64,000 bases of DNA, taken from positions 9,323 through 73,322 of the forward strand of contig DATIID010000001.1 of assembly GCA_035480035.1 (NCBI GenBank). Reading direction: 5' to 3'. Position numbers and translations under genes: made by a program. The stretch is from Candidatus Saccharimonadales bacterium. GTDB taxonomy: Bacteria; Patescibacteriota; Saccharimonadia; Saccharimonadales; OMJO01. Position 1 is the stretch's first letter; the number at the start of each line of letters is the position of its first letter. Of the stretch, positions 1,081 to 63,317 are shown one piece after another. The notes under the pieces were generated by a model. It was not told the DNA's origin. It was given only the letters and a program-made list of their open reading frames with translations, and did not search any database.

Positions 1081-2997
1081 TTAGAGCTTTGGCTTGCTTG
1101 GGAAGAGGGAGCCCTTTAACAGACCGATAAGAGCCAATAGGGCAATTATCAAGCCCACCCAAAGGAACCATCTGTAACTGTGACCGTTGACTACTTTGGG
1201 ATCAGCGATAGTAGCTATGTCAGTACCGGCAGTTGTGGTTACAAGTTGATCTATAGGTGTTGTTTTGGCAGTGGGGACTGTCGTGGCGTCGCTACTTGAG
1301 TCTGTGGAGCTAGTTTGATTATAAGTTGGAGTAGCTATTGGTTCGGCGTTCTTTGGGGCTGTGCCGGTAGTCAAAATTTCTACTATGCCCCCGTCGGTAC
1401 CAAAATCATTTGTAAAGCTGAACTGCAGATCGTACCGAGTGCCAGGCGTTAGGCCACCAACCGTGACATCATTAGCAAAACGCACATCATCCAGGTCAAC
1501 GATGTGCCAACTATTCTTGCCATGGACACTCCAGCGGACTTCCCAAGTTGCAGTGCCCCAGCCCAGCGGAGCAACCACGCAACCCTCAGAGATAGTAGTG
1601 TTGGTAGAGTTCGGCGCCTCGCAAAGCAAATAAGGGTCAATCATTGGTGCGAAACTGGGGTAAGTATTGAAGTTGGTGCGCCAGTGAGTGACATCAAAGG
1701 TCCAACCATTAAAGACTGGTCCGCCACTGTTATCGATAAATTCTGCTGAATTGGCGATAGATGTACCAAAGGAGCTGCTGATAAGGCCGGTAATGTTTGG
1801 GTCAAAGTAGAGATGAGAGGCGTGGGCACCGATGTCTATTGGGTTGAAGCCGCTAAAGCCGGCTACTAGGGCATCACCGATAACGGCATTTGAAAGATCG
1901 ATAGCATTGACTGCAAAAAGATGATCGAGAGTACCATTACTAAAATTGCCAAAAAGCCCACCAACAATGTCATTACCAGTAATCGAACCAGCTGCGTAGC
2001 CAAAGCTAACGTGGTCAAAGCTTCCATTGCCAGCCAGACCACCAACGTAAGTGCCAGTTGAGACGATCGACCCGTAGTAGTAAACATTATCCATACTAAG
2101 ACTAAAACCGTTTGCGCTGCCGACTAAACCACCAACATTATCAACGCCATAAACATTAGCCGTACTATAGCTGAGCGATATGCTGCCGATATTTGACATC
2201 TGAGCCACGAGTCCACCAACGTTATTAGTGCCAGTTACGGTGCCATTAGAAAAGACTTTGTTTAGGATTAGACCTTGCGATGGTCCGGCAATACCACCAA
2301 CTAATATTCCAGTACCATAGACACTACCAGAATAATAACTATTCGTTAAAGTTAATGTGTGGCCGGGTCCTACGCAATCTACCTTGCCGAACAAACCACC
2401 CAACTTAATATCACCAAAAACATTAGCATCACTGTGGCTATCTGATACTGCTATGTGACCTTGTACAAAGCCAGCAAAACTACCACAGAAGGAGCTGCAA
2501 TTAAGTGATCCGTGCGTAGTAACGTTTATAATTTGGGCATTGCCACTAAGACCACCGCTCAATATACCCGAATTCTGATCAAGGGCTGTGACATTAGCCG
2601 TGAGTGTAAGGTTTTTCACAACTCCATTAGATGTTATGAATGCAAATAAGCCGACTAGATTAGGTGAAATTGGCCTATTAATAGTCAGGTTGGTAATGCT
2701 GTGATTCTGACCATCCAGCGAGCCAGTAAAACCAACAATCGGAAGCCAACCATCGCCACCATTAAAACTTGCCGAACCGGAGCAGTTGATATTATTAGCT
2801 AGTTCGTAGTAAGCCGTAACGTCGTCGCCGATCGACTGCAACTGCGCGCAGTTAGTAATTTGAAATGGATTGCCGCTTGAGCCGTCACCACTACCGCTAA
2901 AGGCCAGGGCTTTGCCGCTACCAAGAGCGATCAAGCTTATAGCCAATATGCCGCCAAAGAACGATAATTTTGTTTGCCAGTTTGCCAGTTTTTTCAT
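1081..2997 (-). CDS. GLUG-repeat cell-surface protein (signal peptide, FN3-like domain, C-terminal TM anchor)
   Basis: ORF 1081..3036. The likely start is MKKLANWQ at 2997, which gives a signal peptide ending ...GSGKALA. There are many tandem v-GGL-v/f-G segments (NVGGLVAQ, NVGGLVGS, YVGGLAGN, IVGGLFGN) typical of the GLUG motif. The FN3-like segment is WEVRWS...GLTPGTRYDLQFSFTND. A Thr/Ser-rich stalk leads to a terminal hydrophobic helix, WFLWVGLIIALLALIGLL. Confidence 0.75.
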   Translation of the reverse strand: MKKLANWQTKLSFFGGILAISLIALGSGKALAFSGSGDGSSGNPFQITNCAQLQSIGDDVTAYYELANNINCSGSASFNGGDGWLPIVGFTGSLDGQNHSITNLTINRPISPNLVGLFAFITSNGVVKNLTLTANVTALDQNSGILSGGLSGNAQIINVTTHGSLNCSSFCGSFAGFVQGHIAVSDSHSDANVFGDIKLGGLFGKVDCVGPGHTLTLTNSYYSGSVYGTGILVGGIAGPSQGLILNKVFSNGTVTGTNNVGGLVAQMSNIGSISLSYSTANVYGVDNVGGLVGSANGFSLSMDNVYYYGSIVSTGTYVGGLAGNGSFDHVSFGYAAGSITGNDIVGGLFGNFSNGTLDHLFAVNAIDLSNAVIGDALVAGFSGFNPIDIGAHASHLYFDPNITGLISSSFGTSIANSAEFIDNSGGPVFNGWTFDVTHWRTNFNTYPSFAPMIDPYLLCEAPNSTNTTISEGCVVAPLGWGTATWEVRWSVHGKNSWHIVDLDDVRFANDVTVGGLTPGTRYDLQFSFTNDFGTDGGIVEILTTGTAPKNAEPIATPTYNQTSSTDSSSDATTVPTAKTTPIDQLVTTTAGTDIATIADPKVVNGHSYRWFLWVGLIIALLALIGLLKGSLFPSKPKL

Positions 2998-3088
2998 TTT
3001 GGTATTACTACTTATGGTTAAGTATAATCCAGGCACATCCTAGAGGCAATCATTTACCAGTCGAAAAGGTGATTTGCTCGTGGTTTGG

Positions 3089-17454: not shown

Positions 17455-18777
17455 ATGATTAGCGAACGATTAGCCTGCCAAGTTGATGAAACCTACGCTT
17501 CAAGACCAATTGATGAGTTGGTTTCAGCTAGTTCAATTACCGATGATAGAACCGAACAAATCCGATTGGAAGCGGCTATTAACCAACGAATGATCGAACA
17601 TGCCATCAGAGTGGCTGATAGTCATCGTCTATCGCTTTTAAATAGTGTAGTTGAGCTGGATGAAGCCCGTGAAGCATATCACCGAGCTCGGCTACGAACT
17701 GATGAAAAACTATCTCATAGTCAAGTTGATGGTAATAAAACAACAGATAATGTTATTTTCTTACCAGTTCAACCTCTAAATGAAGCTGAATCGATTGATG
17801 ATAAACCTGAGCCAACGGCTATTTTATTCGACCAAGAAGCGCCAGAACTTGGTGAGCCCGAGCGACTTTCACCCCTAAAACGAGCTGTTTTAAAATCTAG
17901 AAGTGCCGTCAAAGATTGGCTCGATAAACCCGGCTTCGAAGTGTCCATACCAGTCAGAACTAACGCACCACTAACAATACCGGTGCCAGCTAAAACCAAG
18001 CCAGGTTTTGAATTACCGGTTCCGACCGTAAGTTTTAATTGGCAAAAGTTTCAACTGCAACCGGATCCAATTGCAACCGAAACAGTTCCATCCAACTCCG
18101 AGCCGAATGTCACTACATTGCCGGAGCGCACATCACCTTGGCAAGGTATAAAAGACGCCACCAAAGACGTTGTTATCAAAGCGCCCCAGTCTTTTAGGCG
18201 GGCCAGCGCTTGGGCTGGCCAGAAACTGGTTATTGGGAAGGATGCAGTAAAAGACAGATTAAATGGGATACGAGATTATATAGCCGGTATCGAAACTGAT
18301 CACGAGAAATTTGCTCGCGTGGCTATTGGGGTTGGGGCAGTGGCCATGGCTGGCGCCTCGGTTTACGCGCTTAATAAGGGTCTTCATCTTGATCATTACT
18401 TAGGGCGCATACTAGATAGCGGTGCCAAACCTTTCTCTGAATTGAAACCAAAAGCTATCCACCCGGGCATCGTCGAACATGTTAAGCCGAAAACTACTAA
18501 ATTACCGAATATACCGAAATATATAAACCCGCTTCATCCGGTTCGCCCCCCAGTAGTTAAGCCACCCACGGCCATCATAGCTAAACAATATCAGTACCCG
18601 TGGGATTGGGCTGAGGCAGCCGGCGGTCGAGGCCACGGCTCACAGCTACTCACAGATTTAGGGCACAAGGCCCAACTAGCTGGTCATAATGTGACTTGGC
18701 ACGGTCAGTGGCTAGAGGTTGACGGCAAATCTGACACTACCAGCGTTATCAAAGTTCTTGGCCGATTTAATCATTAA
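17455..18777 (+). CDS. hypothetical bitopic membrane protein
   Basis: 440 aa with an N-terminal helical region, a Pro-rich linker, one TM (VAIGVGAVAMAGASVYAL) and a C-terminal ~60-aa domain (YPWDWAEAAG...VTWHGQWLEVDG). No family recognised. Confidence 0.5.
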   Translation: MISERLACQVDETYASRPIDELVSASSITDDRTEQIRLEAAINQRMIEHAIRVADSHRLSLLNSVVELDEAREAYHRARLRTDEKLSHSQVDGNKTTDNVIFLPVQPLNEAESIDDKPEPTAILFDQEAPELGEPERLSPLKRAVLKSRSAVKDWLDKPGFEVSIPVRTNAPLTIPVPAKTKPGFELPVPTVSFNWQKFQLQPDPIATETVPSNSEPNVTTLPERTSPWQGIKDATKDVVIKAPQSFRRASAWAGQKLVIGKDAVKDRLNGIRDYIAGIETDHEKFARVAIGVGAVAMAGASVYALNKGLHLDHYLGRILDSGAKPFSELKPKAIHPGIVEHVKPKTTKLPNIPKYINPLHPVRPPVVKPPTAIIAKQYQYPWDWAEAAGGRGHGSQLLTDLGHKAQLAGHNVTWHGQWLEVDGKSDTTSVIKVLGRFNH

Positions 18778-36305: not shown

Positions 36306-39300
36306 ATGGACAACAATCCAATCGGCGGCGATGTCGCCGAACTTGAACTGCCGGGCTCCTCATCGCTTGAGGTTAGTACGACTATGCGCCCACTAAAGCA
36401 AGGCGGTAGTAAACGTTGGTTACTCGTCATGCTTGGCGCTGTAATTTTGCTGGTTGGTTTGATTAGTCTTATTTTTTGGCGGATTAATGCTCTTAACAAG
36501 AAAAATAATCAAGACCACAGTGCCAAAACCCAATCTATCAATTTAAGTAACTTATCATCAGTGGCCACACCATTTGAGACTGGCAATGTTGACAAGTTAG
36601 TGGTTAACGGTCAACTACAAGCCAATCAAGGTTTAGTCCTGACACCTACGACAAAACCGGATAATGCGGTACTTGGTCAAATCTATATCGATCAAGACAC
36701 AAACCAAATTCACTACTTTAGTGGTAACAATTTCGTTACCTTAGTAAACTCGCAAGACTTGGCGGCTTTGCAAGCTCAATTACAGCAAACCAGGAGTATT
36801 ACCGCGGTTACTAGTTTGCAAAATCAATCTGGAGCACTGACTCTATTGGGCGGTGGCGGACTGACGGTCGGCGTCAACGGCCACCAGCTTAGTCTTAACT
36901 TGCCGCAGAACCTGACTCAAACGGCCAGTCCAACTTTTAATGACTTGGCTTTAAGTGGAGTATTGTTCAGTAACACTTATTCGCACACTGGTAGCGGTCA
37001 CGACATTAACTTCAGTGCTGGCAATGATTCAATTACTTTTACAGCTAATGGTAAAACTTACATTTTACCTAACAGCGGTAGTGGTGTGCAGACCATTTGT
37101 ACCGATCAGGCTTTATGTCTAGTTGGCGGCGGCACAGCCGTTCTACTAGGTCCGCAAAATGCTCAGGCAGATGCGTCAACCAACTCCTCATTGTTTATTG
37201 ATAAGCAAAATTCCGGTAATCTTTTACAGTTGCAGCTAAATGGCAGCAATAAGATAGTGGTGGCTAACAGTGGTAATACAACCATTAGCGCCAATTTAAC
37301 AATTACCGGTGTGTTATCGGCCAACACAATAACACCAAGTGGTCCGCTAACTATCGGTACAACTGCTCAAACCTATAGTTTAGTTGGCGATCAAAGCTCA
37401 AGTATTGTCGCCCAAGATACCAACAACCACCGCGTAACGGTTGACTTCCAAGCTAGTGGTAGTGTCAATAATGACGTAACGTATTACTTTGATCGATCAA
37501 CTGCTGCTGGTAATTATGCGGTTTGTACCTCTGCAAACAACTGTTCAGCGGCATTAAATCAGGTAACGGCGCCAATTCAAGGAACGGCTACCTATATACC
37601 TAAGTTTACTGGCGGTCTGACTGTCGGCAACTCGGCTATTTCTGACAATGGCGCTACGGTTACCATTAACAGCGAGGATTTTAATGTAACTGGCGGCTCG
37701 ATTATTACTAATACAATTAGCTCGACTGGGGCCCTAACGATTGGTTCAACTGGTCAGGACTTTACCCTTCAAGGTAATATTGGCTCGGCCCTGACGATCG
37801 ATGATGGCGGTGGTAATACAACCGCTGTCGGTTTTGAAGCTCCAAGCGGTGCGAATACCATTACTTTTCCGGCTTTGACTGGCACAGTTTGTCTACTCGA
37901 GGCGGGTAATTGTAGCAGTAGTAGTAGCGTTTCGGCATCAGGTGGCAGTAACAACGGTTTTGTAGCTCTATTTACGTCTAACACCAATATTACGGCTTCG
38001 ATTTTAGCCCAAAGTGGTAGTGCACTTAGCACAACTGGCACGCTTTCAGTTGGCGGAGCTAGTCTAGAGGTTGGTACGGCTAGTACCACTGACGGCTCAA
38101 TTGTTCTACAAAATGCTAACAATGTCTTTACGACTTCAATTAGTGCACCAAATCAAAGCACTGGTAGCGGCACTGTATTTTTACCAGATACAGCAGGGTC
38201 AAACGACACGGTTTGTCTACTAGTTCTAGCTAACTGTAATGGCGGTGGCGGTGGGGCGGCCATAACCGGCGGCGGTAATGCTGGCACGATTGCACTATTT
38301 ACCGGCAGTGGTGCGAGTACGACGATTGGCGATTCCATATTAACGCAAAGTGGCGGGGCCTTAACAGTTGCTGGTGACACCTCTATCCAAGGCAACCTGA
38401 CATTCGGTAACGCCGATACTGTATTTACTAATAGCATTCAACAAACTGCTAATGGCCAAAACATGAGTATTAACGCTGGCGCTGATAGTTTGACCATAAC
38501 TACCGGTGCTGGTAGTCTGATATTTTCGGATGGCTCAAACAGTTTTACACTACCCACCACTGGTGGACTTAATCAAGTTATTTGTACTTCCGGTATTACT
38601 TGTGCGGCCGGTGGTGGCGTAGCCGTAACTTTGGGTCCAAACGACGGCTTTTCATCTCAAGCCCAAAGCGACCCCAGCGCTTATAATTCAATTTTTATAG
38701 ATAAGGCTAACGCTTCCGGCAATATACTGGATCTACAACGGGGTGGTACCGATGAGTTAGTAGTTGCTAATAACGGTGATACTACAATTGCTTCTACCTT
38801 AACGGTTCAATCGGCCGGCAGTCTAACTTTAGGCAACACCTCTGGCGCGGCCACTGGCTCGATTGGTTTTCGTAACGGTACCAACGGCAATGTCATAACT
38901 CTTCAAAATAGTTCAAGCGGTACCAATTATTCACTAACTCTGCCGACCGCAGTAGCTAGTGTCAATGGCGCTTGTTTAACTTCCGATACCAGCGGCAACT
39001 TGTCATTTACCGGTGCGGCTTGTGCTACTACCAGCGGTAGCGGTAGTTTCCTGGGCAAAAATATTAATGATACTTCCAGTTTTTCATTTGCTGGTAATCT
39101 CTACGGTTTTACCAACACTAATACCGGCGCCGCTGGCGTATTAAGTTTGACTAACTCCGGTACTAACAGTGCACTTAAAGTCGTCCAGGCCAGCGGTTCC
39201 AGTAATCCGGGTGGTGGCCAAGCCTTGATACTAGCCAACAACACCGCCACTACACCATCAGGTAACTTGATCGATCTGCAGGCCGGTGGCATTAGTAAAT

Positions 39301-41672
39301 TTAGCGTTGACGTCAATGGTGCGGTCACCGTCGCCAGTACTTATAACACCAACACCTTTAGCAGTTCTCAGTTAATCTTTGGTGCGGCTGGTACAGCCAG
39401 TGTTCAAAGTGCTGCCACTCGGGCCCTTAACTTGGTTGGTAATGCCACGTCAACTTTCTCGACTTCGTCTGGTGATGTAGCTTTAACGCCGGCTTCCGGA
39501 ACGGTTGACCTAACCTCAGCCACTCTAGTTAAGGCGAATGGCAATTTGACCATTAAAGCTGGTGGTACCAACACTCTTACTTTAGATACGGTTACGTCGG
39601 GCGGCGCTATCAACTTTAGTCAAAACACAACTGTAACTGGCACTAAGACCTTTACGGTAAATGGTGGTCTAACCACTCTCCAAGCTGGTTTAACCGCCAA
39701 TGGCGGCACGATTTCCCTAAACGCTAGTAGTAATAATGCCACCAACATTAATACCGGTACCAGCACCGGAGCAATCAATATTGGCAATAGTGCCAACGCT
39801 GGTGCGGTCTCAGTTCAAAGTGCCACTAGTGCCAATGTCGTAGTTGGTGCAAGTACCTACACCTTCCAAGGTGGTAGTGGCAATATTTGTACCTCAGCCA
39901 ATAACTGCAGTTATCAATCATCAGCTACTGCTTGTAACACATCGAATAACTGTAACGCCGTATTACTTAGTCCAGGTGCTGCCCAAAGCGGCTTTATTTC
40001 GATTAACAGCTCCCTAAATGCAGCATCGCTAAGTGTAAGTGGTGCAGTTGCTGGTGCTTCTCTGAGTATTAGCGGTTCGGGAACTATCAGTACCAACCTG
40101 ACAGTTAGTAATAATCTGACAGTTAATAATAACGCCACAGTTGCTAATAATCTGACCGTTGATAATATTAATGGCTCGCATCTTATATTTGTATTCCCCG
40201 CAACTTGTTTTGGTGGCTGTAATGCCTACATCTTAAATAGTGGACAAATTGCCGGAGTAGATATAGGTACCAGTACTGGTGATATTACCACGCTTACCGG
40301 TGGTACATATAACGGTGCAACTGTCGATAACACAAGCATTACCCTAAACAATGGTGTAAAGGTAATAACCCAAGGTGGATCAACAGCATCGTTACAGTGG
40401 AACAGTCATGCTGCTGAAATACGCAGTATTGGTGTGGTTCAGGTCACTACCAGCGGCGCCGTCCATCTTAAAGGCGATACCGATATCACGACTGATTCCA
40501 GTGGTGGTGGATCGGGTGCCCTAACAGCCGCTGGTACTATAACTGCTGGTGCCCGAATCGTAAGTGGCAATGGTTTAACAGCTAACGGTACTATTACCAG
40601 TGTAACCTTTGGGGCCGCATCTAATAAGGTAGCAGTTTGTCGTAACAGTGGTCAGTTAAACGCCTGTACCGGTGCACCGACATCTGACTACGCTGAGCTG
40701 TATCCGGTAGCTAGTGACGTAGTCACGGGTGATGTTGTTGAGCAAGGTGATACACAAGTACCAACTTATTTACCACACGATGATGGTTCAATCGACTGGG
40801 GCACAGTCCTGGGTACTACTAATCAAATGGTCAAATCTACCACTCCTTATAGTAGTAAATTGATTGGAGTTATGTCGGGTCCAGTCGACAAGACAGTTAC
40901 CCAGGGTTATAACATTAAGGCGGAGGACAATCCTAAACCGGTAGCTCTTAGTGGTCGTGTAGTCGTAAAGGTCACGACCGAAAATGGCTCGATTCAGCCT
41001 GGTGACTTCTTGACAGCTTCAGCAACTTTGCCAGGTTACGCCATGAAAGCTACCCATGCTGGCTATGTAATTGGCCAAGCTTTATCGTCATATAACGAGG
41101 CTTCACCGGGGTTAGTCATGGTCTTTGTTGGCACCCAGTATTATCCAGGCCCATCGGAAGGTGATCTTATTCAGAACGGTGGCGATGCCAACCTTGCTAA
41201 TCTGGCTCTGACCGGTGACCTAAACGTCTCCGGCCAAACCAAGCTGGCTAGCTTGTCAGTGACTGGTGCTACCACCTTAGCTCAGTTAACGGTTAGCGGT
41301 AGTGCTACCTTCAACGGTACACTTAGCATAAACGGCCATATTATCAGTAGTAACGTCAGTGGTACAACTACCGCAGTACTTGGTGCCGCGGCTTGTGCAT
41401 CACCGACCATCACGCTTAACGGTAATGATACCAGTGGTACAATCACCATTGTAACTGGTACCGGTTGCTCGATTAGCGGGGTACTAGCGACGGTGGACTT
41501 TGCCAACGCCTTTGGAGCTAGCCCCCGAGTGGTCTTATCGCCAGCCGAAACTAACGCCGCCAAACTTCAATACTTCAACGGTAGCGCCACTAGCTCAAGC
41601 TTTACAATCGATACTAACACCGTACCAACCGGTTCAACGACCTACAAGTACAACTACTTTGTCGTTCAATAA
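36306..41672 (+). CDS. giant (1788 aa) membrane-anchored repetitive surface protein
   Basis: N-terminal TM (WLLVMLGAVILLVGLISLIFW) followed by ~1700 aa rich in G/T/S/N/A with beta-helix-like repeats. Seven short Cys-loop motifs are present. A ~125-aa module is duplicated internally. The C-terminal domain ends KYNYFVVQ. Confidence 0.8.
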   Translation: MDNNPIGGDVAELELPGSSSLEVSTTMRPLKQGGSKRWLLVMLGAVILLVGLISLIFWRINALNKKNNQDHSAKTQSINLSNLSSVATPFETGNVDKLVVNGQLQANQGLVLTPTTKPDNAVLGQIYIDQDTNQIHYFSGNNFVTLVNSQDLAALQAQLQQTRSITAVTSLQNQSGALTLLGGGGLTVGVNGHQLSLNLPQNLTQTASPTFNDLALSGVLFSNTYSHTGSGHDINFSAGNDSITFTANGKTYILPNSGSGVQTICTDQALCLVGGGTAVLLGPQNAQADASTNSSLFIDKQNSGNLLQLQLNGSNKIVVANSGNTTISANLTITGVLSANTITPSGPLTIGTTAQTYSLVGDQSSSIVAQDTNNHRVTVDFQASGSVNNDVTYYFDRSTAAGNYAVCTSANNCSAALNQVTAPIQGTATYIPKFTGGLTVGNSAISDNGATVTINSEDFNVTGGSIITNTISSTGALTIGSTGQDFTLQGNIGSALTIDDGGGNTTAVGFEAPSGANTITFPALTGTVCLLEAGNCSSSSSVSASGGSNNGFVALFTSNTNITASILAQSGSALSTTGTLSVGGASLEVGTASTTDGSIVLQNANNVFTTSISAPNQSTGSGTVFLPDTAGSNDTVCLLVLANCNGGGGGAAITGGGNAGTIALFTGSGASTTIGDSILTQSGGALTVAGDTSIQGNLTFGNADTVFTNSIQQTANGQNMSINAGADSLTITTGAGSLIFSDGSNSFTLPTTGGLNQVICTSGITCAAGGGVAVTLGPNDGFSSQAQSDPSAYNSIFIDKANASGNILDLQRGGTDELVVANNGDTTIASTLTVQSAGSLTLGNTSGAATGSIGFRNGTNGNVITLQNSSSGTNYSLTLPTAVASVNGACLTSDTSGNLSFTGAACATTSGSGSFLGKNINDTSSFSFAGNLYGFTNTNTGAAGVLSLTNSGTNSALKVVQASGSSNPGGGQALILANNTATTPSGNLIDLQAGGISKFSVDVNGAVTVASTYNTNTFSSSQLIFGAAGTASVQSAATRALNLVGNATSTFSTSSGDVALTPASGTVDLTSATLVKANGNLTIKAGGTNTLTLDTVTSGGAINFSQNTTVTGTKTFTVNGGLTTLQAGLTANGGTISLNASSNNATNINTGTSTGAINIGNSANAGAVSVQSATSANVVVGASTYTFQGGSGNICTSANNCSYQSSATACNTSNNCNAVLLSPGAAQSGFISINSSLNAASLSVSGAVAGASLSISGSGTISTNLTVSNNLTVNNNATVANNLTVDNINGSHLIFVFPATCFGGCNAYILNSGQIAGVDIGTSTGDITTLTGGTYNGATVDNTSITLNNGVKVITQGGSTASLQWNSHAAEIRSIGVVQVTTSGAVHLKGDTDITTDSSGGGSGALTAAGTITAGARIVSGNGLTANGTITSVTFGAASNKVAVCRNSGQLNACTGAPTSDYAELYPVASDVVTGDVVEQGDTQVPTYLPHDDGSIDWGTVLGTTNQMVKSTTPYSSKLIGVMSGPVDKTVTQGYNIKAEDNPKPVALSGRVVVKVTTENGSIQPGDFLTASATLPGYAMKATHAGYVIGQALSSYNEASPGLVMVFVGTQYYPGPSEGDLIQNGGDANLANLALTGDLNVSGQTKLASLSVTGATTLAQLTVSGSATFNGTLSINGHIISSNVSGTTTAVLGAAACASPTITLNGNDTSGTITIVTGTGCSISGVLATVDFANAFGASPRVVLSPAETNAAKLQYFNGSATSSSFTIDTNTVPTGSTTYKYNYFVVQ
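36948..37310 (+). repeat. intragenic protein-level repeat, copy 1 (aa ~215-335 of giant protein)
   Basis: ...INFSAGNDSITFTANGKTYILPNSGSGVQTICTDQALCLVGGGTAVLLGPQNA...SSLFIDKQNSGNLLQLQLNGSNKIVVANSGNTTISANLTITG is collinear with copy 2. Confidence 0.6.
38388..38813 (+). repeat. intragenic protein-level repeat, copy 2 (aa ~695-836 of giant protein)
   Basis: ...MSINAGADSLTITTGAGSLIFSDGSNSFTLPTTGGLNQVICTSGITCAAGGGVAVTLGPNDG...NSIFIDKANASGNILDLQRGGTDELVVANNGDTTIASTLTVQS. Diverged at the DNA level. Confidence 0.6.
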
Positions 41673-60400: not shown

Positions 60401-60937
60401 ATGCCTAATGGCTCTGAACACGAAAATCCACTTGGCGGTAATATACCAGCTACTTTCCGTTTAAATGAAGTTATGAAGCTAAAATTCAGCGCTGGTATAG
60501 CTGAGCTTCAAAAACATCCTAAGCTTAAAGACGCCCAACACATAGCATTTGAACACGAAAGAATTGATTGCTCGATCGCTGGTTCAGATAGTATTTCACC
60601 TGCATCACTTTACAATTTTCCAGATACGCCCGAAGAGTATCATCCGAACTTGATGTACTTTGATGTTTTTTTATTCAAAGACGGCCAGCCGTACAAACCA
60701 TTTGGCCAGGCTAATGAGGACGCCGCCTACGTAATTGTGACGGGTGATGAAATGCCACCTAAAATGTTTCAGCAGGAGGAAGAGATTAAATTGATTGACC
60801 CAGAAATATATCCTGACATCAAACCACACATGCTAAATGAGGTAGAAGCTGAAGCCGTGATAAAAGTGTTAAATCAAGCCAAACCAGAGTCGGTCGAAAG
60901 ACATGTGGATGCTTATGGCTCAAACGATGAAACTTAA
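60401..60937 (+). CDS. hypothetical protein
   Basis: 178-aa acidic ORF; no family recognised. Confidence 0.45.
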   Translation: MPNGSEHENPLGGNIPATFRLNEVMKLKFSAGIAELQKHPKLKDAQHIAFEHERIDCSIAGSDSISPASLYNFPDTPEEYHPNLMYFDVFLFKDGQPYKPFGQANEDAAYVIVTGDEMPPKMFQQEEEIKLIDPEIYPDIKPHMLNEVEAEAVIKVLNQAKPESVERHVDAYGSNDET

Positions 60938-61470
60938 GTCTTTAACAATCCAGCTAATTTTTGGCGTAGTTTAGTTAACTTAGGATTGATAATTATTTGG
61001 CAATAAGCTTGTTCTGGATTTTTATTGAAGAAATCTTGATGGCTTTCATCGGCTGGCCAAAATTTTTCGAACTTTACAATTTCTGTAACGATCGGCTGAT
61101 CCCATAACTTTTGAGCAGCAACACGGGACTGTTCTATAACTTTTTTCTGTTCCTCATTTTGATAAAAAATAATTGAGCGATACTGTGGGCCAACATCATG
61201 GCCTTGGCGATCGCGGGTAGTCGGATCGTGGACTATCCAAAAAACTTCGAGCAAGTCGTTTAAGCTAACTTCATCCGAATGATATTCAATTTGGATAACT
61301 TCGGCATGGCCGGTTAGCTGCATGGCTACTTGAGTGTAGCTGGGATTATCAACATGACCACCGCTAAAACCAGCCGTTACTCTGTTAACCCCCCGTACTA
61401 AACGGAAGGCTGCATCAGTACACCAAAAACAACCACCACCTAAAACCAAAGTCTCAACATCATTAGCCAT
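60934..61470 (-). CDS. msrA: peptide methionine (S)-sulfoxide reductase MsrA
   Basis: LGGGCFWC active-site motif and the typical length. Confidence 0.9.
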   Translation of the reverse strand: MANDVETLVLGGGCFWCTDAAFRLVRGVNRVTAGFSGGHVDNPSYTQVAMQLTGHAEVIQIEYHSDEVSLNDLLEVFWIVHDPTTRDRQGHDVGPQYRSIIFYQNEEQKKVIEQSRVAAQKLWDQPIVTEIVKFEKFWPADESHQDFFNKNPEQAYCQIIINPKLTKLRQKLAGLLKT

Positions 61471-61471
61471 A

Positions 61472-61502
61472 TTGATATTTTAAGAGTATTTCATGGTATA
61501 GT
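61472..61502 (+). promoter_or_regulatory. candidate promoter TTGATA-N19-TATAGT, 7 nt upstream of ATG 61510
   Basis: -35 at 61472-61477 and -10 at 61497-61502. On the opposite strand, TAGACT (61505-61500)-N17-TAAAAT (61482-61477) sits 6 nt upstream of the msrA ATG. The two promoters interdigitate. Confidence 0.4.
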
Positions 61503-61509
61503 CTATGGC

Positions 61510-62289
61510 ATGAGTAAAAAAGTGGACTTTAAGGCGCAAATTAGGCGTCTGCAACAAGTTAGTGTGGTGGCTTATGTCGGACTAGCAGCCCTGGCAGTTT
61601 GGCTGATGAGCGGGGCATCTTATCAACTTAATGTTAACTATTTAGCTAAAGATGACTTAGCTAGCAAAACCAACACTGTTTTTGCGCCAGCTAGTCATCC
61701 GGTTTTTGAGGTTCGCTTAAAATGGCTGGTGGTCATCATCATGCTATTGGCGGCAGTTATTCCGTATTTGCAGTTAATGCGCTATCCCGGCAAATATCAA
61801 AAAAGCCTTAAGAATCGGGTCGAACCAATGCGTTGGATTGGTATGGGTGTAGTCTCGGCCTTGATGGTCGAAACCATCGCCTTGTTATCCGGTATAAACG
61901 ATATTATTACACTGAAAGTAATTGCCGCCTTAATGCTAATCACTTGCTGGCTAGGTTATCTGTCCGAAAAAGAAAATGCTAAAAGCCGTAAGCCAGTTTG
62001 GCCAACTTTTGCCGTTAGCGTTGTCACCGCCACTTTGCCGTGGATTTTGATTGCAGTCGCGGCAGTCATGACACCGTTTTATTCGGCCGTTCGAGCGCCA
62101 TGGTATATTTACGGCTTATACGTCACCACGCTTGCCACTTTTGTTTTCTTTGCTAAAACCCAAATGAAGAGCCATCGAAAAGTCGGACCTTGGAAAGATT
62201 ACTTGTTTGTTGAACGCAACTACCAAGTGGCTAGTATTGTTTCCAAAGTAGCCTTTGCGGCGATTTTGATTGTTGGTCTACATAAGTAG
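61510..62289 (+). CDS. heliorhodopsin-like 7-TM protein
   Basis: 259 aa with 7 predicted TM helices. Collinear by eye with heliorhodopsin 48C12 (sequence recalled from memory): KNRVEPMRWIGMGVVSALMVETIALLSGINDIITL vs KNQNIFRWVEYSLSSSVMIVLIAQICGIADIVAL; LPWILIAV vs VPWIGLLI; WKDYLFVERNYQVASIVSKVAFA vs WSNYLRGERAYIVLSLVAKSALA. The TM7 Lys is conserved (K246). Confidence 0.7.
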   Translation: MSKKVDFKAQIRRLQQVSVVAYVGLAALAVWLMSGASYQLNVNYLAKDDLASKTNTVFAPASHPVFEVRLKWLVVIIMLLAAVIPYLQLMRYPGKYQKSLKNRVEPMRWIGMGVVSALMVETIALLSGINDIITLKVIAALMLITCWLGYLSEKENAKSRKPVWPTFAVSVVTATLPWILIAVAAVMTPFYSAVRAPWYIYGLYVTTLATFVFFAKTQMKSHRKVGPWKDYLFVERNYQVASIVSKVAFAAILIVGLHK

Positions 62290-62295
62290 CAGTTA

Positions 62296-62523
62296 ATGGA
62301 ACTCAAACGTCTTTATGTCGACCCAGCGATTGAGTTGACGCACGATTTTTGGTTGCACGACGAAGCATTATTAAAGAACTTAAATGACCACTTTCAGGCT
62401 GGCCAAAAAGTCGTGCTTTACAACGATGTTCACCACGAACGCCTGTACAACATTGTCGAGCTCAAAATCGACGAGGCACATTTAGTGATGTTGACCGAAT
62501 TCATGCCGAGCGAAAAAAATTAG
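62296..62523 (+). CDS. hypothetical small protein
   Basis: 75-aa ORF starting 6 nt after the heliorhodopsin-like gene. No family recognised. Confidence 0.4.
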   Translation: MELKRLYVDPAIELTHDFWLHDEALLKNLNDHFQAGQKVVLYNDVHHERLYNIVELKIDEAHLVMLTEFMPSEKN

Positions 62524-62552: not shown

Positions 62553-63317
62553 ATGGTTTACGAGAGAAGTCCGGCCTACCAGCCCGGGCAAACAGAAGTT
62601 TATAAACTCAGCCGCAGTCGGATTGAAAATTTTGTCCGCTGTCAGCGATGTTTTTGGCTGGCTCAGCGGCTCAAAATAAACCAACCGAGCTCGCCGCCAT
62701 TTTTGATTAACAGTGCAATTGACGCTTTATTAAAAACCGAGTTTGATACTTATCGCGCTAAAGATGAGCAACACCCACTTCAGGTCGAGTTTAAAATTGA
62801 TGCTAAACCGTTTGCTCATAAAGATTTAGAACGTTGGCGTCACGTTTTCACTGGAGTTCAGAGGTTTCATGAGCCAACCAATTTACTAATATTTGGCGGT
62901 GTTGACGATGTGTGGGTCAATCCCAAGGGTGAATTAGTAGTAGTAGATTACAAAGCCACTGCCAAGGATAAAGAGATTACTGATCTTGAGGATTCCAAAT
63001 GGCACGATAGTTATCGCCGTCAAATGGAAGTTTACCAGTGGCTACTTCGCGGCGAAGGCCACAAAGTTAGTGATACCGGTTATTTTGTTTATGCCAATGG
63101 CATTTCTAAAAATGATGGTTTCTTTAATAAAGTAGAGTTTCGGACCAATGTATTTCCTTACAAGGGTAGTGATAAATGGATAGAGCCAACACTCATAGAC
63201 ATCAAAGAAGTATTGGAAGGTGATATGCCCAGAGAATCTGCCGATTGCGAATATTGTGCGTATGCCCGATCCCGTACTGAGCTGACGTTAAAACATGTCC
63301 AAAACCATAAGAAATAG
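62553..63317 (+). CDS. PD-(D/E)XK nuclease family protein with four Cys (Cas4/RecB-nuclease-like)
   Basis: N-terminal CQRCFW, a core GGVDDV...LVVVDYKAT (D...D/ExK), later QMEVYQWL (QxxxY-like), and a C-terminal CEYCAY. This resembles Fe-S Cas4/AddB-type nuclease domains. Confidence 0.65.
   Translation: MVYERSPAYQPGQTEVYKLSRSRIENFVRCQRCFWLAQRLKINQPSSPPFLINSAIDALLKTEFDTYRAKDEQHPLQVEFKIDAKPFAHKDLERWRHVFTGVQRFHEPTNLLIFGGVDDVWVNPKGELVVVDYKATAKDKEITDLEDSKWHDSYRRQMEVYQWLLRGEGHKVSDTGYFVYANGISKNDGFFNKVEFRTNVFPYKGSDKWIEPTLIDIKEVLEGDMPRESADCEYCAYARSRTELTLKHVQNHKK

Follow-up and report, generated by a model that had tools for sequence, protein, structure and literature searches.

Surveys of the heliorhodopsin family call Glu107 and the His23/His80 pair (numbering of heliorhodopsin 48C12) conserved across heliorhodopsins, and photocycle models rest on them. 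Here we describe a heliorhodopsin gene whose product (hereafter the query) is without both of these features, namely the carboxylate on transmembrane helix 3 (TM3) and the His pair. The gene lies in a 64,000-nucleotide stretch of DNA, hereafter the window, from Candidatus Saccharimonadales bacterium (GenBank assembly GCA_035480035.1, contig DATIID010000001.1, positions 9,323 to 73,322 of the forward strand). In 48C12 the Schiff base is hydrogen-bonded to Glu107 and Ser237, Ser76 and Ser111 hold Glu107, and Asn101 closes off a water-filled cavity that extends from Glu107 as far as Arg104 (PMC7049168). The bottleneck is formed by Asn101 together with Glu230, and an acetate at the Asn101 amide sits about 6 Å from Glu107 (PMC10434121). 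When the counterion is neutralised, be it by low pH or by the substitutions E107A/Q in 48C12 or E108A in TaHeR, the Schiff base stays protonated by virtue of an anion in the cavity, with chloride as the surrogate (PMC9385722); chloride is present in the Schiff-base cavity of low-pH TaHeR (PDB 7u55; PMC9385722), and the 48C12 E107A/Q mutants are described as needing anions for a protonated Schiff base at pH 7 (Singh et al. 2019, as relayed in PMC9385722).

By profile, fold, topology and lysine motif the gene in the window is a heliorhodopsin.

61510..62289, + strand: heliorhodopsin-family gene, 259 amino acids, NCBI HSX44555.1; supported by Pfam, NCBIfam, an AlphaFold2 (AF2) model and an exact NCBI protein.

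The 259-residue product matches the Pfam family PF18761 Heliorhodopsin (E=4.8e-37, 128 bits against a cutoff of 26.7, profile positions 16-238 of 242) and the NCBIfam equivalog NF038020 HeR (128 bits, cutoff 100). Note that the family assignment is already public, because an identical protein stands in NCBI as HSX44555.1, "heliorhodopsin HeR [Candidatus Saccharimonadales bacterium]". The AF2 model, which was built from 30 homologues (pLDDT 87, pTM 0.83), consists of seven helices plus a long AB beta-hairpin with strands at 37-44 and 61-69, and in Foldseek it reaches a TMq of 0.88 to TaHeR (6is6) and 0.85 to 48C12 (6su3), with type-1 rhodopsins at no more than 0.64. Lys and Arg residues number 20 in the loops predicted to be inside (N-terminus, BC, DE, FG) and 5 in those predicted to be outside (AB, CD, EF, C-terminus), a distribution that fits the N-in topology of heliorhodopsins, in which the N-terminus is cytoplasmic and the orientation inverted. 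The query thus shares with 48C12 (6su3, 6uh3) and TaHeR (6is6) the family, the fold, the AB hairpin and, as far as loop charges tell, the N-in topology, at an identity of only 22-24%.

The position of each key residue was set by four methods: phmmer against PDB chains, hmmsearch with a clade profile, a MAFFT alignment of 182 sequences, and the Foldseek structural match. The alignment holds the best 150 of 871 heliorhodopsin-like proteins found by a HMMER search of 1.84 billion cluster representatives, 29 word-index matches and two PDB fragments; because those 150 representatives are the ones closest to the query, all frequencies given below describe this clade and not heliorhodopsins at large. 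By all four, R108-W109-I110-G111-M112 is aligned with RWVEY in 48C12 and with RWFEY in TaHeR, and S242-I-V-S-K246 with S237-L-V-A-K241 of 48C12. The R-W pair that anchors the first of these segments is near-invariant in the alignment (R in 173/182 and W in 179/182). In the query, then, the R-W-x-E/D counterion motif of TM3 carries Gly111 in place of the acid, and the SxxxK motif of TM7 is kept. The residues on which the argument turns are as follows.

61840..61842, + strand: codon GGT of Gly111, at the primary counterion position (48C12 Glu107, TaHeR Glu108).
62245..62247, + strand: codon AAA of Lys246, the TM7 Schiff-base lysine (48C12 Lys241).
62233..62235, + strand: Ser242, at the position of 48C12 Ser237 and bacteriorhodopsin Asp212; non-acidic.
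61822..61824, + strand: codon GAA of Glu105, at the position of 48C12 Asn101, the bottleneck of the Schiff-base cavity; a candidate surrogate charge.
61852..61854, + strand: codon GTC of Val115, at the position of 48C12 Ser111, a hydrogen-bond partner of the counterion; Thr in the closest relative and in most of the clade.
61762..61764, + strand: Pro85, at the position of 48C12 His80; Pro or Ser throughout the clade.
61573..61578, + strand: Tyr22-Val23, opposite 48C12 Phe22-His23 in the profile alignment to 6su3; no His.
61870..61872, + strand: Glu121 (TM3), at the position of 48C12 Val117; a clade signature, E in 93/182.
61915..61917, + strand: Lys136 (TM4), at the position of 48C12 Leu132; a clade signature, K in 143/182, absent from canonical heliorhodopsins.

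The cavity of the query is altered well beyond the counterion. Opposite His23 of 48C12 the profile alignment has Val23, and a one-residue shift in the register of TM1 would put Tyr22 there, in neither case a His; the His23/His80 pair that lines the Schiff-base cavity is missing from the query, and both residues are absent from most members of this candidate phyla radiation (CPR) clade. Read from 48C12 to the query, the correspondences are S76 to A81, H80 to P85, Y92 to Y96, N101 to E105, R104 to R108, E107 to G111, Y108 to M112, S111 to V115, M115 to M119, V117 to E121, L132 to K136, N138 to M142, E149 to E153, P172/W173 to P177/W178, F206 to F211, Q213 to Q218, Y226 to Y231 and E230 to E235. 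Compared with 48C12 and TaHeR, therefore, the query has Gly for the Glu counterion, has other residues for Ser76, Ser111, Tyr108 and Asn138 and for His23 and His80, a pair proposed to accept the proton, has Glu at the Asn101 gate, and bears an extra Glu121/Lys136 in an otherwise hydrophobic outer half. What it shares with them is the SxxxK motif together with R104/W105, E149, E230, Y92, Y226, M115, P172, W173, F206 and Q213 (residues identical to 48C12 are W109, M119, P177, W178, F211, Q218, S242, K246, R108, E153, E235, Y96 and Y231 of the query). The initial annotation, made from the sequence alone, had described a seven-helix, heliorhodopsin-like gene from a Saccharibacteria-type host, with Lys246 at the position of Lys241, Gly111 at that of Glu107 and no His opposite His23 or His80. 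Each of these points is borne out: the profile matches lie above their cutoffs, the model has the heliorhodopsin fold, both registers are the same by all methods (the MAFFT alignment with 180 homologues keeps Gly111 in place, and its GGT codon can be read directly), and NCBI assigns the identical protein to Candidatus Saccharimonadales.

A missing counterion in a single gene could reflect an error of sequencing or assembly, a transient polymorphism or the decay of a pseudogene, the more so as Asp (GAC/GAT) and Gly (GGC/GGT) codons may be one base apart and the lineage is known from a single population, with its closest relative among 5.8 billion clusters only 71% identical. We consider any of these explanations very improbable. 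Three Logan assemblies, independent of each other and made from different runs (SRR9179559, SRR9179561 and SRR9179563), have the gene in identical form, with 0/780 nucleotide differences, on which ground we rejected assembly error and polymorphism, and the protein is the same as that of the NCBI entry for the metagenome-assembled genome (MAG). Moreover, the codon of the sister is GAC and that of the query GGT, which is two differences and not one, and Gly or Ala also occupies the counterion site in other lineages. Against pseudogene decay, the open reading frame (ORF) is intact, its start and length are conserved, and the ratio of nonsynonymous to synonymous substitution rates (dN/dS) is 0.05. 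(JGI metagenome contigs gave no match when scanned with a codon-free DNA pattern, and a protein-based scan of the same contigs recovered only the 71% identical sister, P0002.)

A quick neighbour-joining tree places the query inside a D-S-K subclade (positions 111, 242 and 246) together with P0002 (71% identical), P0003, P0004 and P0032, of which it is the sole Gly member; no relative closer than P0002 was found in the 5.8-billion-cluster collection or the JGI contigs. Judged from the alignment, the ancestral counterion in this Saccharimonadia clade is Asp, which makes the change in the query one from D to G. The codons of P0002 and the query are GAC (Asp) and GGT (Gly) at position 111, ACA (Thr) and GTC (Val) at position 115, CTT (Leu) and ATG (Met) at position 107, and TTG (Leu) and GAA (Glu) at position 105. 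D111G, T115V and the gain of Glu105 all fall on the query branch, and Glu105 is the only Asp or Glu in its column among the 182 sequences.

Pairwise dN/dS against the Asp-type sister P0002 is about 0.05, a rough upper-level estimate since dS is saturated in this comparison, and by this measure the gene is under purifying selection. The query has nonetheless changed faster than its sister: a relative-rate count with three outgroups gave 40 query-specific and 8 sister-specific substitutions (p=3e-6). The same test gave 14:12 for the neighbouring MsrA and 46:13 for a PD-(D/E)XK neighbour. A genome-wide acceleration is not supported by the symmetric count for MsrA; the acceleration thus appears gene-specific, yet it is not unique to the heliorhodopsin, as the PD-(D/E)XK gene is also skewed. 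None of the 40 query-specific substitutions falls at the 15 retinal-contact positions (hypergeometric p=0.075), and three (105, 111 and 115) fall at the 11 positions of the counterion network.

The clade to which the query belongs is itself variable at the counterion. All of the species-representative genomes recovered by a pattern scan (19/19) are Saccharibacteria, Saccharimonadales or Patescibacteria MAGs. Most of the aligned sequences belong to the clade, which departs from characterised heliorhodopsins in having Asp for the Glu counterion, Pro or Ser for His80, the signature Lys136 and usually Glu121. Among the 182 sequences the counterion column contains D 87, E 39, G 14, Y 12, S 8, A 7 and others 15, and the lysine column K 142, R 13 and others about 25. 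Thus the TM3 carboxylate is absent from about 30% of the sampled sequences and the lysine, in place of which stands R, L, Q, S, T, A or V, from about 20%. The word "invariant" that the initial annotation had used for the counterion motif does not hold in this clade, in which the ancestral residue appears to be Asp and some three in ten representatives have no carboxylate there at all.

In sequences that keep the lysine, an acid stands at the Ser237 position in 17/31 of those without a TM3 acid and in 4/110 of those with one (p=3e-10), which suggests that the counterion moved to TM7 in these proteins, much as in the type-1 DxxxK motif. Members of this group have Tyr, Ala, Leu or Phe at the TM3 site and Asp or Glu four residues before the lysine, and most of them cluster in the quick tree (examples are P0084, P0085, P0105, P0110, P0112, P0122, P0123, P0131, P0135, P0136, P0142, P0152 and P0163). 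We considered the same relocation for the query; real as it is in the clade, it is ruled out here because Ser242 is non-acidic. Twelve clade sequences, the query included, keep Lys with an acid at neither site. Three of them, P0014, P0015 and P0017 (Gly or Ala at 111, Gly242, Lys246), are 75-78% identical to each other, with synonymous divergence at saturation (pS at least 0.75) and nonsynonymous divergence (pN) of about 0.15, and the G/A-G-K pattern also occurs in P0048 and the genome locus L015. On these figures the independent G/A-G-K subclade is counterion-less, retains its lysine and is long-lasting under purifying selection; a state without counterion but with lysine would seem sustainable, because these proteins have diverged to synonymous saturation at so low a pN. 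Lys-less members are apparent retinal-free heliorhodopsin homologues. (Examples are P0043, P0057, P0060, P0070, P0080, P0086, P0092, P0094, P0095, P0106, P0113, P0116 and P0124, and the loci L012, L022, L028 and L030; some Lys-less homologues stand in the same msrA-linked locus as described below.)

Two further traits of the clade concern the outer half of the helices and the N-terminus. Glu121 and Lys136 occur together in 92 sequences, and Glu121 without Lys136 in 1, a pattern that points to an ion pair within the membrane. The outer half, where it would lie, is hydrophobic throughout in known structures, and 48C12 and TaHeR have Val and Leu at these two positions. Most clade members (P0005-P0030) have a Lys/Thr/Ala-rich, low-complexity, cytoplasmic N-terminal tail of 40-90 residues (MATTTKKSTKAKTKTTK...). 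This tail is missing from the query, P0002 and P0004; the N-terminal extension of P0003 is short and unrelated to it.

What, then, is the state of a heliorhodopsin with Lys246 and Gly111? The reading we favour, to which we give an even chance, is that the query is a functional, vertically inherited heliorhodopsin that is still a pigment, using scavenged retinal, with either Glu105 plus water or an anion providing the balancing charge. All-trans retinal, obtained from outside, would be bound at Lys246; the lineage would have swapped Asp for Gly111 and its hydrogen-bond partner Thr for Val115; and the negative charge that offsets the protonated Schiff base would not be adjacent to it. With Lys246, Ser242 and the pocket intact and purifying selection strong, the query has probably kept its ability to bind retinal. 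As the source of the charge we prefer Glu105, somewhat short of even odds and by analogy with the 48C12 cavity: its carboxylate at the cavity mouth may stabilise the Schiff base through cavity water, and L105E together with D111G leaves the buried network (Schiff base, R108, E153, E235) with the same net charge as before. In favour of this role we count that Glu105 occupies the Asn101 position and was gained on the same branch as D111G. The initial annotation had put forward Glu105 or Glu121 as the substitute acid. The first of these stands as a candidate, being unique to the lineage and located at the cavity bottleneck, and the second was rejected, since Glu121 is found throughout the clade whether or not a counterion is present, is paired with Lys136 (92 vs 1) and lies 10 residues (about 15 Å) further out along TM3. 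A small cytoplasmic anion (chloride, acetate or bicarbonate) in the cavity, as in 48C12 E107A/Q and TaHeR E108A, is in our view an unlikely surrogate for the query, and the less attractive because few polar residues line the cavity any longer and a Glu at its entry would repel anions; the G-G-K lineages, with Ser at position 105, are a more plausible setting for it. Several points weigh against our favoured reading as a whole. Going by the published geometry of 48C12, Glu105 is probably 8-10 Å from the Schiff base, too far for a direct salt bridge, and in the AF2 model residue 105 comes just before the TM3 helix (106-126), where it may be exposed to solvent. Position 105 is Ser, Val or Gln in other lineages without a counterion, so that compensation there is not required. 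The polar lining by which the 48C12 and TaHeR cavity retains water or chloride is mostly gone (His23, His80, Ser76, Ser111 and Tyr108), and the Glu at the bottleneck would repel anions. The absence of changes at the 15 pocket positions has a p of only 0.075, and pocket conservation, tried as a discriminator, is weakly informative in separating Lys-containing from Lys-less members. Furthermore, the 40:8 excess could mean relaxed constraint, lysine loss is enriched among sampled sequences without a TM3 acid (23/54 vs 15/125, odds ratio 5.4, p=1.4e-5), and no report of retinal binding by any member of this CPR clade was found in the literature.

The main rival is that the query, having lost its counterion network, would form no stable pigment any more and be a retinal-free, light-independent protein, for instance a scaffold in the membrane or a regulator that binds a partner, in which Lys246 is kept by inertia. 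The rate of the query lineage is some five times that of its sister (40 vs 8), and counterion, Thr partner and Ser76-equivalent (Ala81, also in the sister) have all been lost; retinal-free heliorhodopsin homologues evidently survive, because the lysine is already gone from about 20% of the sampled sequences, and its loss is commoner in counterion-less sequences in the proportions just given. However, Lys246, Ser242 and 15/15 retinal-contact positions are unchanged in spite of the 40 substitutions, dN/dS is about 0.05, and a unique acidic residue was gained in the cavity on the very same branch. Nor is the acceleration specific evidence of decay, because the PD-(D/E)XK neighbour shares it (46 vs 13) and MsrA does not; and the independent counterion-less subclade kept its lysine through saturating divergence. 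We therefore regard a retinal-free protein as possible but doubtful. It is rather improbable, and slightly more so than an anion surrogate, that retinal is bound with a Schiff base that is unprotonated in the dark, which would make the query a UV/violet pigment at about 360-400 nm. Such a pigment would be expected where no nearby counterion raises the pKa, and the query has no carboxylate at 111 or 242 and a more hydrophobic cavity lining (Ala81, Pro85, Met112 and Val115); the need of 48C12 E107A/Q for anions in order to stay protonated at pH 7, relayed in PMC9385722, points the same way. On the other hand, Glu105, Glu235 and Glu153, which are in or near the cavity network, would raise the pKa, and an unprotonated dark state has no known natural precedent among heliorhodopsins.

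In combining a neutral counterion site with a retained lysine (Gly111, Ser242, Lys246), the query has the configuration of the anion-dependent rhodopsins, and with Lys246 present it is not of the Rh-noK type, which is defined by absence of the Schiff-base lysine. The nearest parallels are 48C12 E107A/E107Q and TaHeR E108A, which like the query have a small neutral residue at the counterion position and an intact lysine. These, however, are laboratory mutants with the full polar cavity and the His pair, whereas the query is natural, with an altered lining and an acid at the entry bottleneck; the behaviour to be expected of it can in part be predicted from the mutant studies, which lead one to expect that an anion from outside the protein can stand in for the counterion. 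Halorhodopsin and the ClR anion pumps among type-1 rhodopsins, and the coral ASO-II opsins (PMC12401545), also have a neutral counterion site and keep the lysine, and in them a diffusible anion, chloride, stabilises the protonated Schiff base. They belong to unrelated or distant families, and the query gave no evidence of a dedicated anion-binding motif or of anion transport. Closest in taxonomic scope is the survey of Chiriac et al. 2022, which reports 80 occurrences of heliorhodopsins in Saccharimonadia, in hosts without a retinal pathway, and covers the same host group and the same new heliorhodopsin clades (PMC9166423). Its main text checks topology and SxxxK, and in that main text loss of the counterion, relocation to TM7, loss of the lysine and adjacency to msrA go unmentioned. 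Our literature search, which did not cover subscription-only papers, found no report of natural counterion-less heliorhodopsins, of relocation to TM7 or of heliorhodopsin with Rh-noK. On the alignment, the query is one of several natural counterion-less, lysine-keeping variants in a little-studied clade, with Gly at the counterion column in 14/182 sequences. We suggest, tentatively and with less than even confidence, that the heliorhodopsins of Saccharimonadia may amount to a natural series in which one scaffold bears different counterion architectures, and whose members would be those with a TM3 Asp or Glu, those with a TM7 acid (DxxxK), those with no protein counterion (G/A-G-K) and, in the query, one with an acid at the cavity mouth (Glu105).

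The genomic setting bears on inheritance, retinal supply and a possible cellular role. Across the clade the heliorhodopsin gene (HeR) lies in a strongly syntenic housekeeping neighbourhood (UppS, RseP, Rce1-like, ProRS, GreA, MsrA, HeR, RsmE, PD-(D/E)XK, SerRS, HPF), where it is resident by vertical inheritance. Its immediate neighbours in the window are the following.

60934..61470, - strand: msrA, peptide methionine sulfoxide reductase (Pfam PMSR, E=6.8e-60).
62296..62523, + strand: remnant of the PUA-like N-terminal part of RsmE, a 75-residue ORF 6 bp downstream of HeR that aligns to the first ~70 residues of the RsmE of locus L008.
62553..63317, + strand: PD-(D/E)XK nuclease gene (Pfam PDDEXK_1), a conserved downstream neighbour by synteny.

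The msrA gene is divergent from HeR, with 39 bp between the two start codons. Among the loci examined (L006, L008-L011 and L012-L029), msrA lies directly upstream of HeR in 14/19 species-representative loci and in 6/7 further ones, either divergently or co-directionally. A role for heliorhodopsins in the response to light-induced oxidative stress has been proposed in the survey cited above (PMC9166423), and the persistent link to msrA fits that proposal; a literature search, again excluding subscription-only papers, found no report that connects methionine sulfoxide reductase with heliorhodopsin. Between msrA and HeR, the 39-bp intergenic region (61471-61509) contains TTGATA, a 19-nucleotide spacer and TGGTATAGT (extended -10-like), which ends 7 nucleotides before the HeR ATG, and there is no Shine-Dalgarno-like motif in 61471-61509. 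As a pattern, this is suggestive of a transcript without a leader and of divergent promoters that overlap. Note that a promoter/terminator consensus scan gave fewer matches than shuffled sequence, and that an Rfam scan of the 64-kb window gave no matches. Downstream, the 75-residue RsmE stub by itself has no Pfam match; full-length RsmE stands at the same position elsewhere in the clade (L008 3551-4234, L009 3819-4409), and the methyltransferase domain is deleted in both the query locus and that of sister P0002, whose stubs are 71% identical.

A Pfam scan of the 60 ORFs of at least 75 residues in the window found no Blh, CrtB, CrtI, CrtY, polyprenyl synthase or second rhodopsin, in agreement with the initial annotation, which had seen no gene for the biosynthesis of retinal or carotenoids in the 64 kb; the cis-prenyltransferase UppS was the only prenyl-synthesis family. 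Because 14/60 of the scanned ORFs have no Pfam match, there is strictly some room for a novel retinal enzyme. (ORFs with no match at E<=1e-4 include 36306-41672 on the + strand, 1788 residues; 1081-3036 on the - strand, 651 residues; and 17455-18777 on the + strand, 440 residues.) Saccharibacteria are without blh, and their type-1 rhodopsins are loaded with external retinal (PMC9296517).

If the Saccharimonadia heliorhodopsins do form the series suggested above, the query would be the first heliorhodopsin with a distal, water-bridged counterion or else a natural anion-dependent heliorhodopsin, and in the latter case its colour and photocycle would report cytoplasmic anions. The natural variants of this clade, which occur in epibiotic CPR bacteria that need scavenged retinal, offer test cases for the roles of the counterion and the histidines, for anion gating in vivo and for the ease with which a counterion can move within the fold. 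Finally, the link to msrA is a concrete lead on the cellular role of heliorhodopsins, which may lie in countering light-induced oxidative damage.

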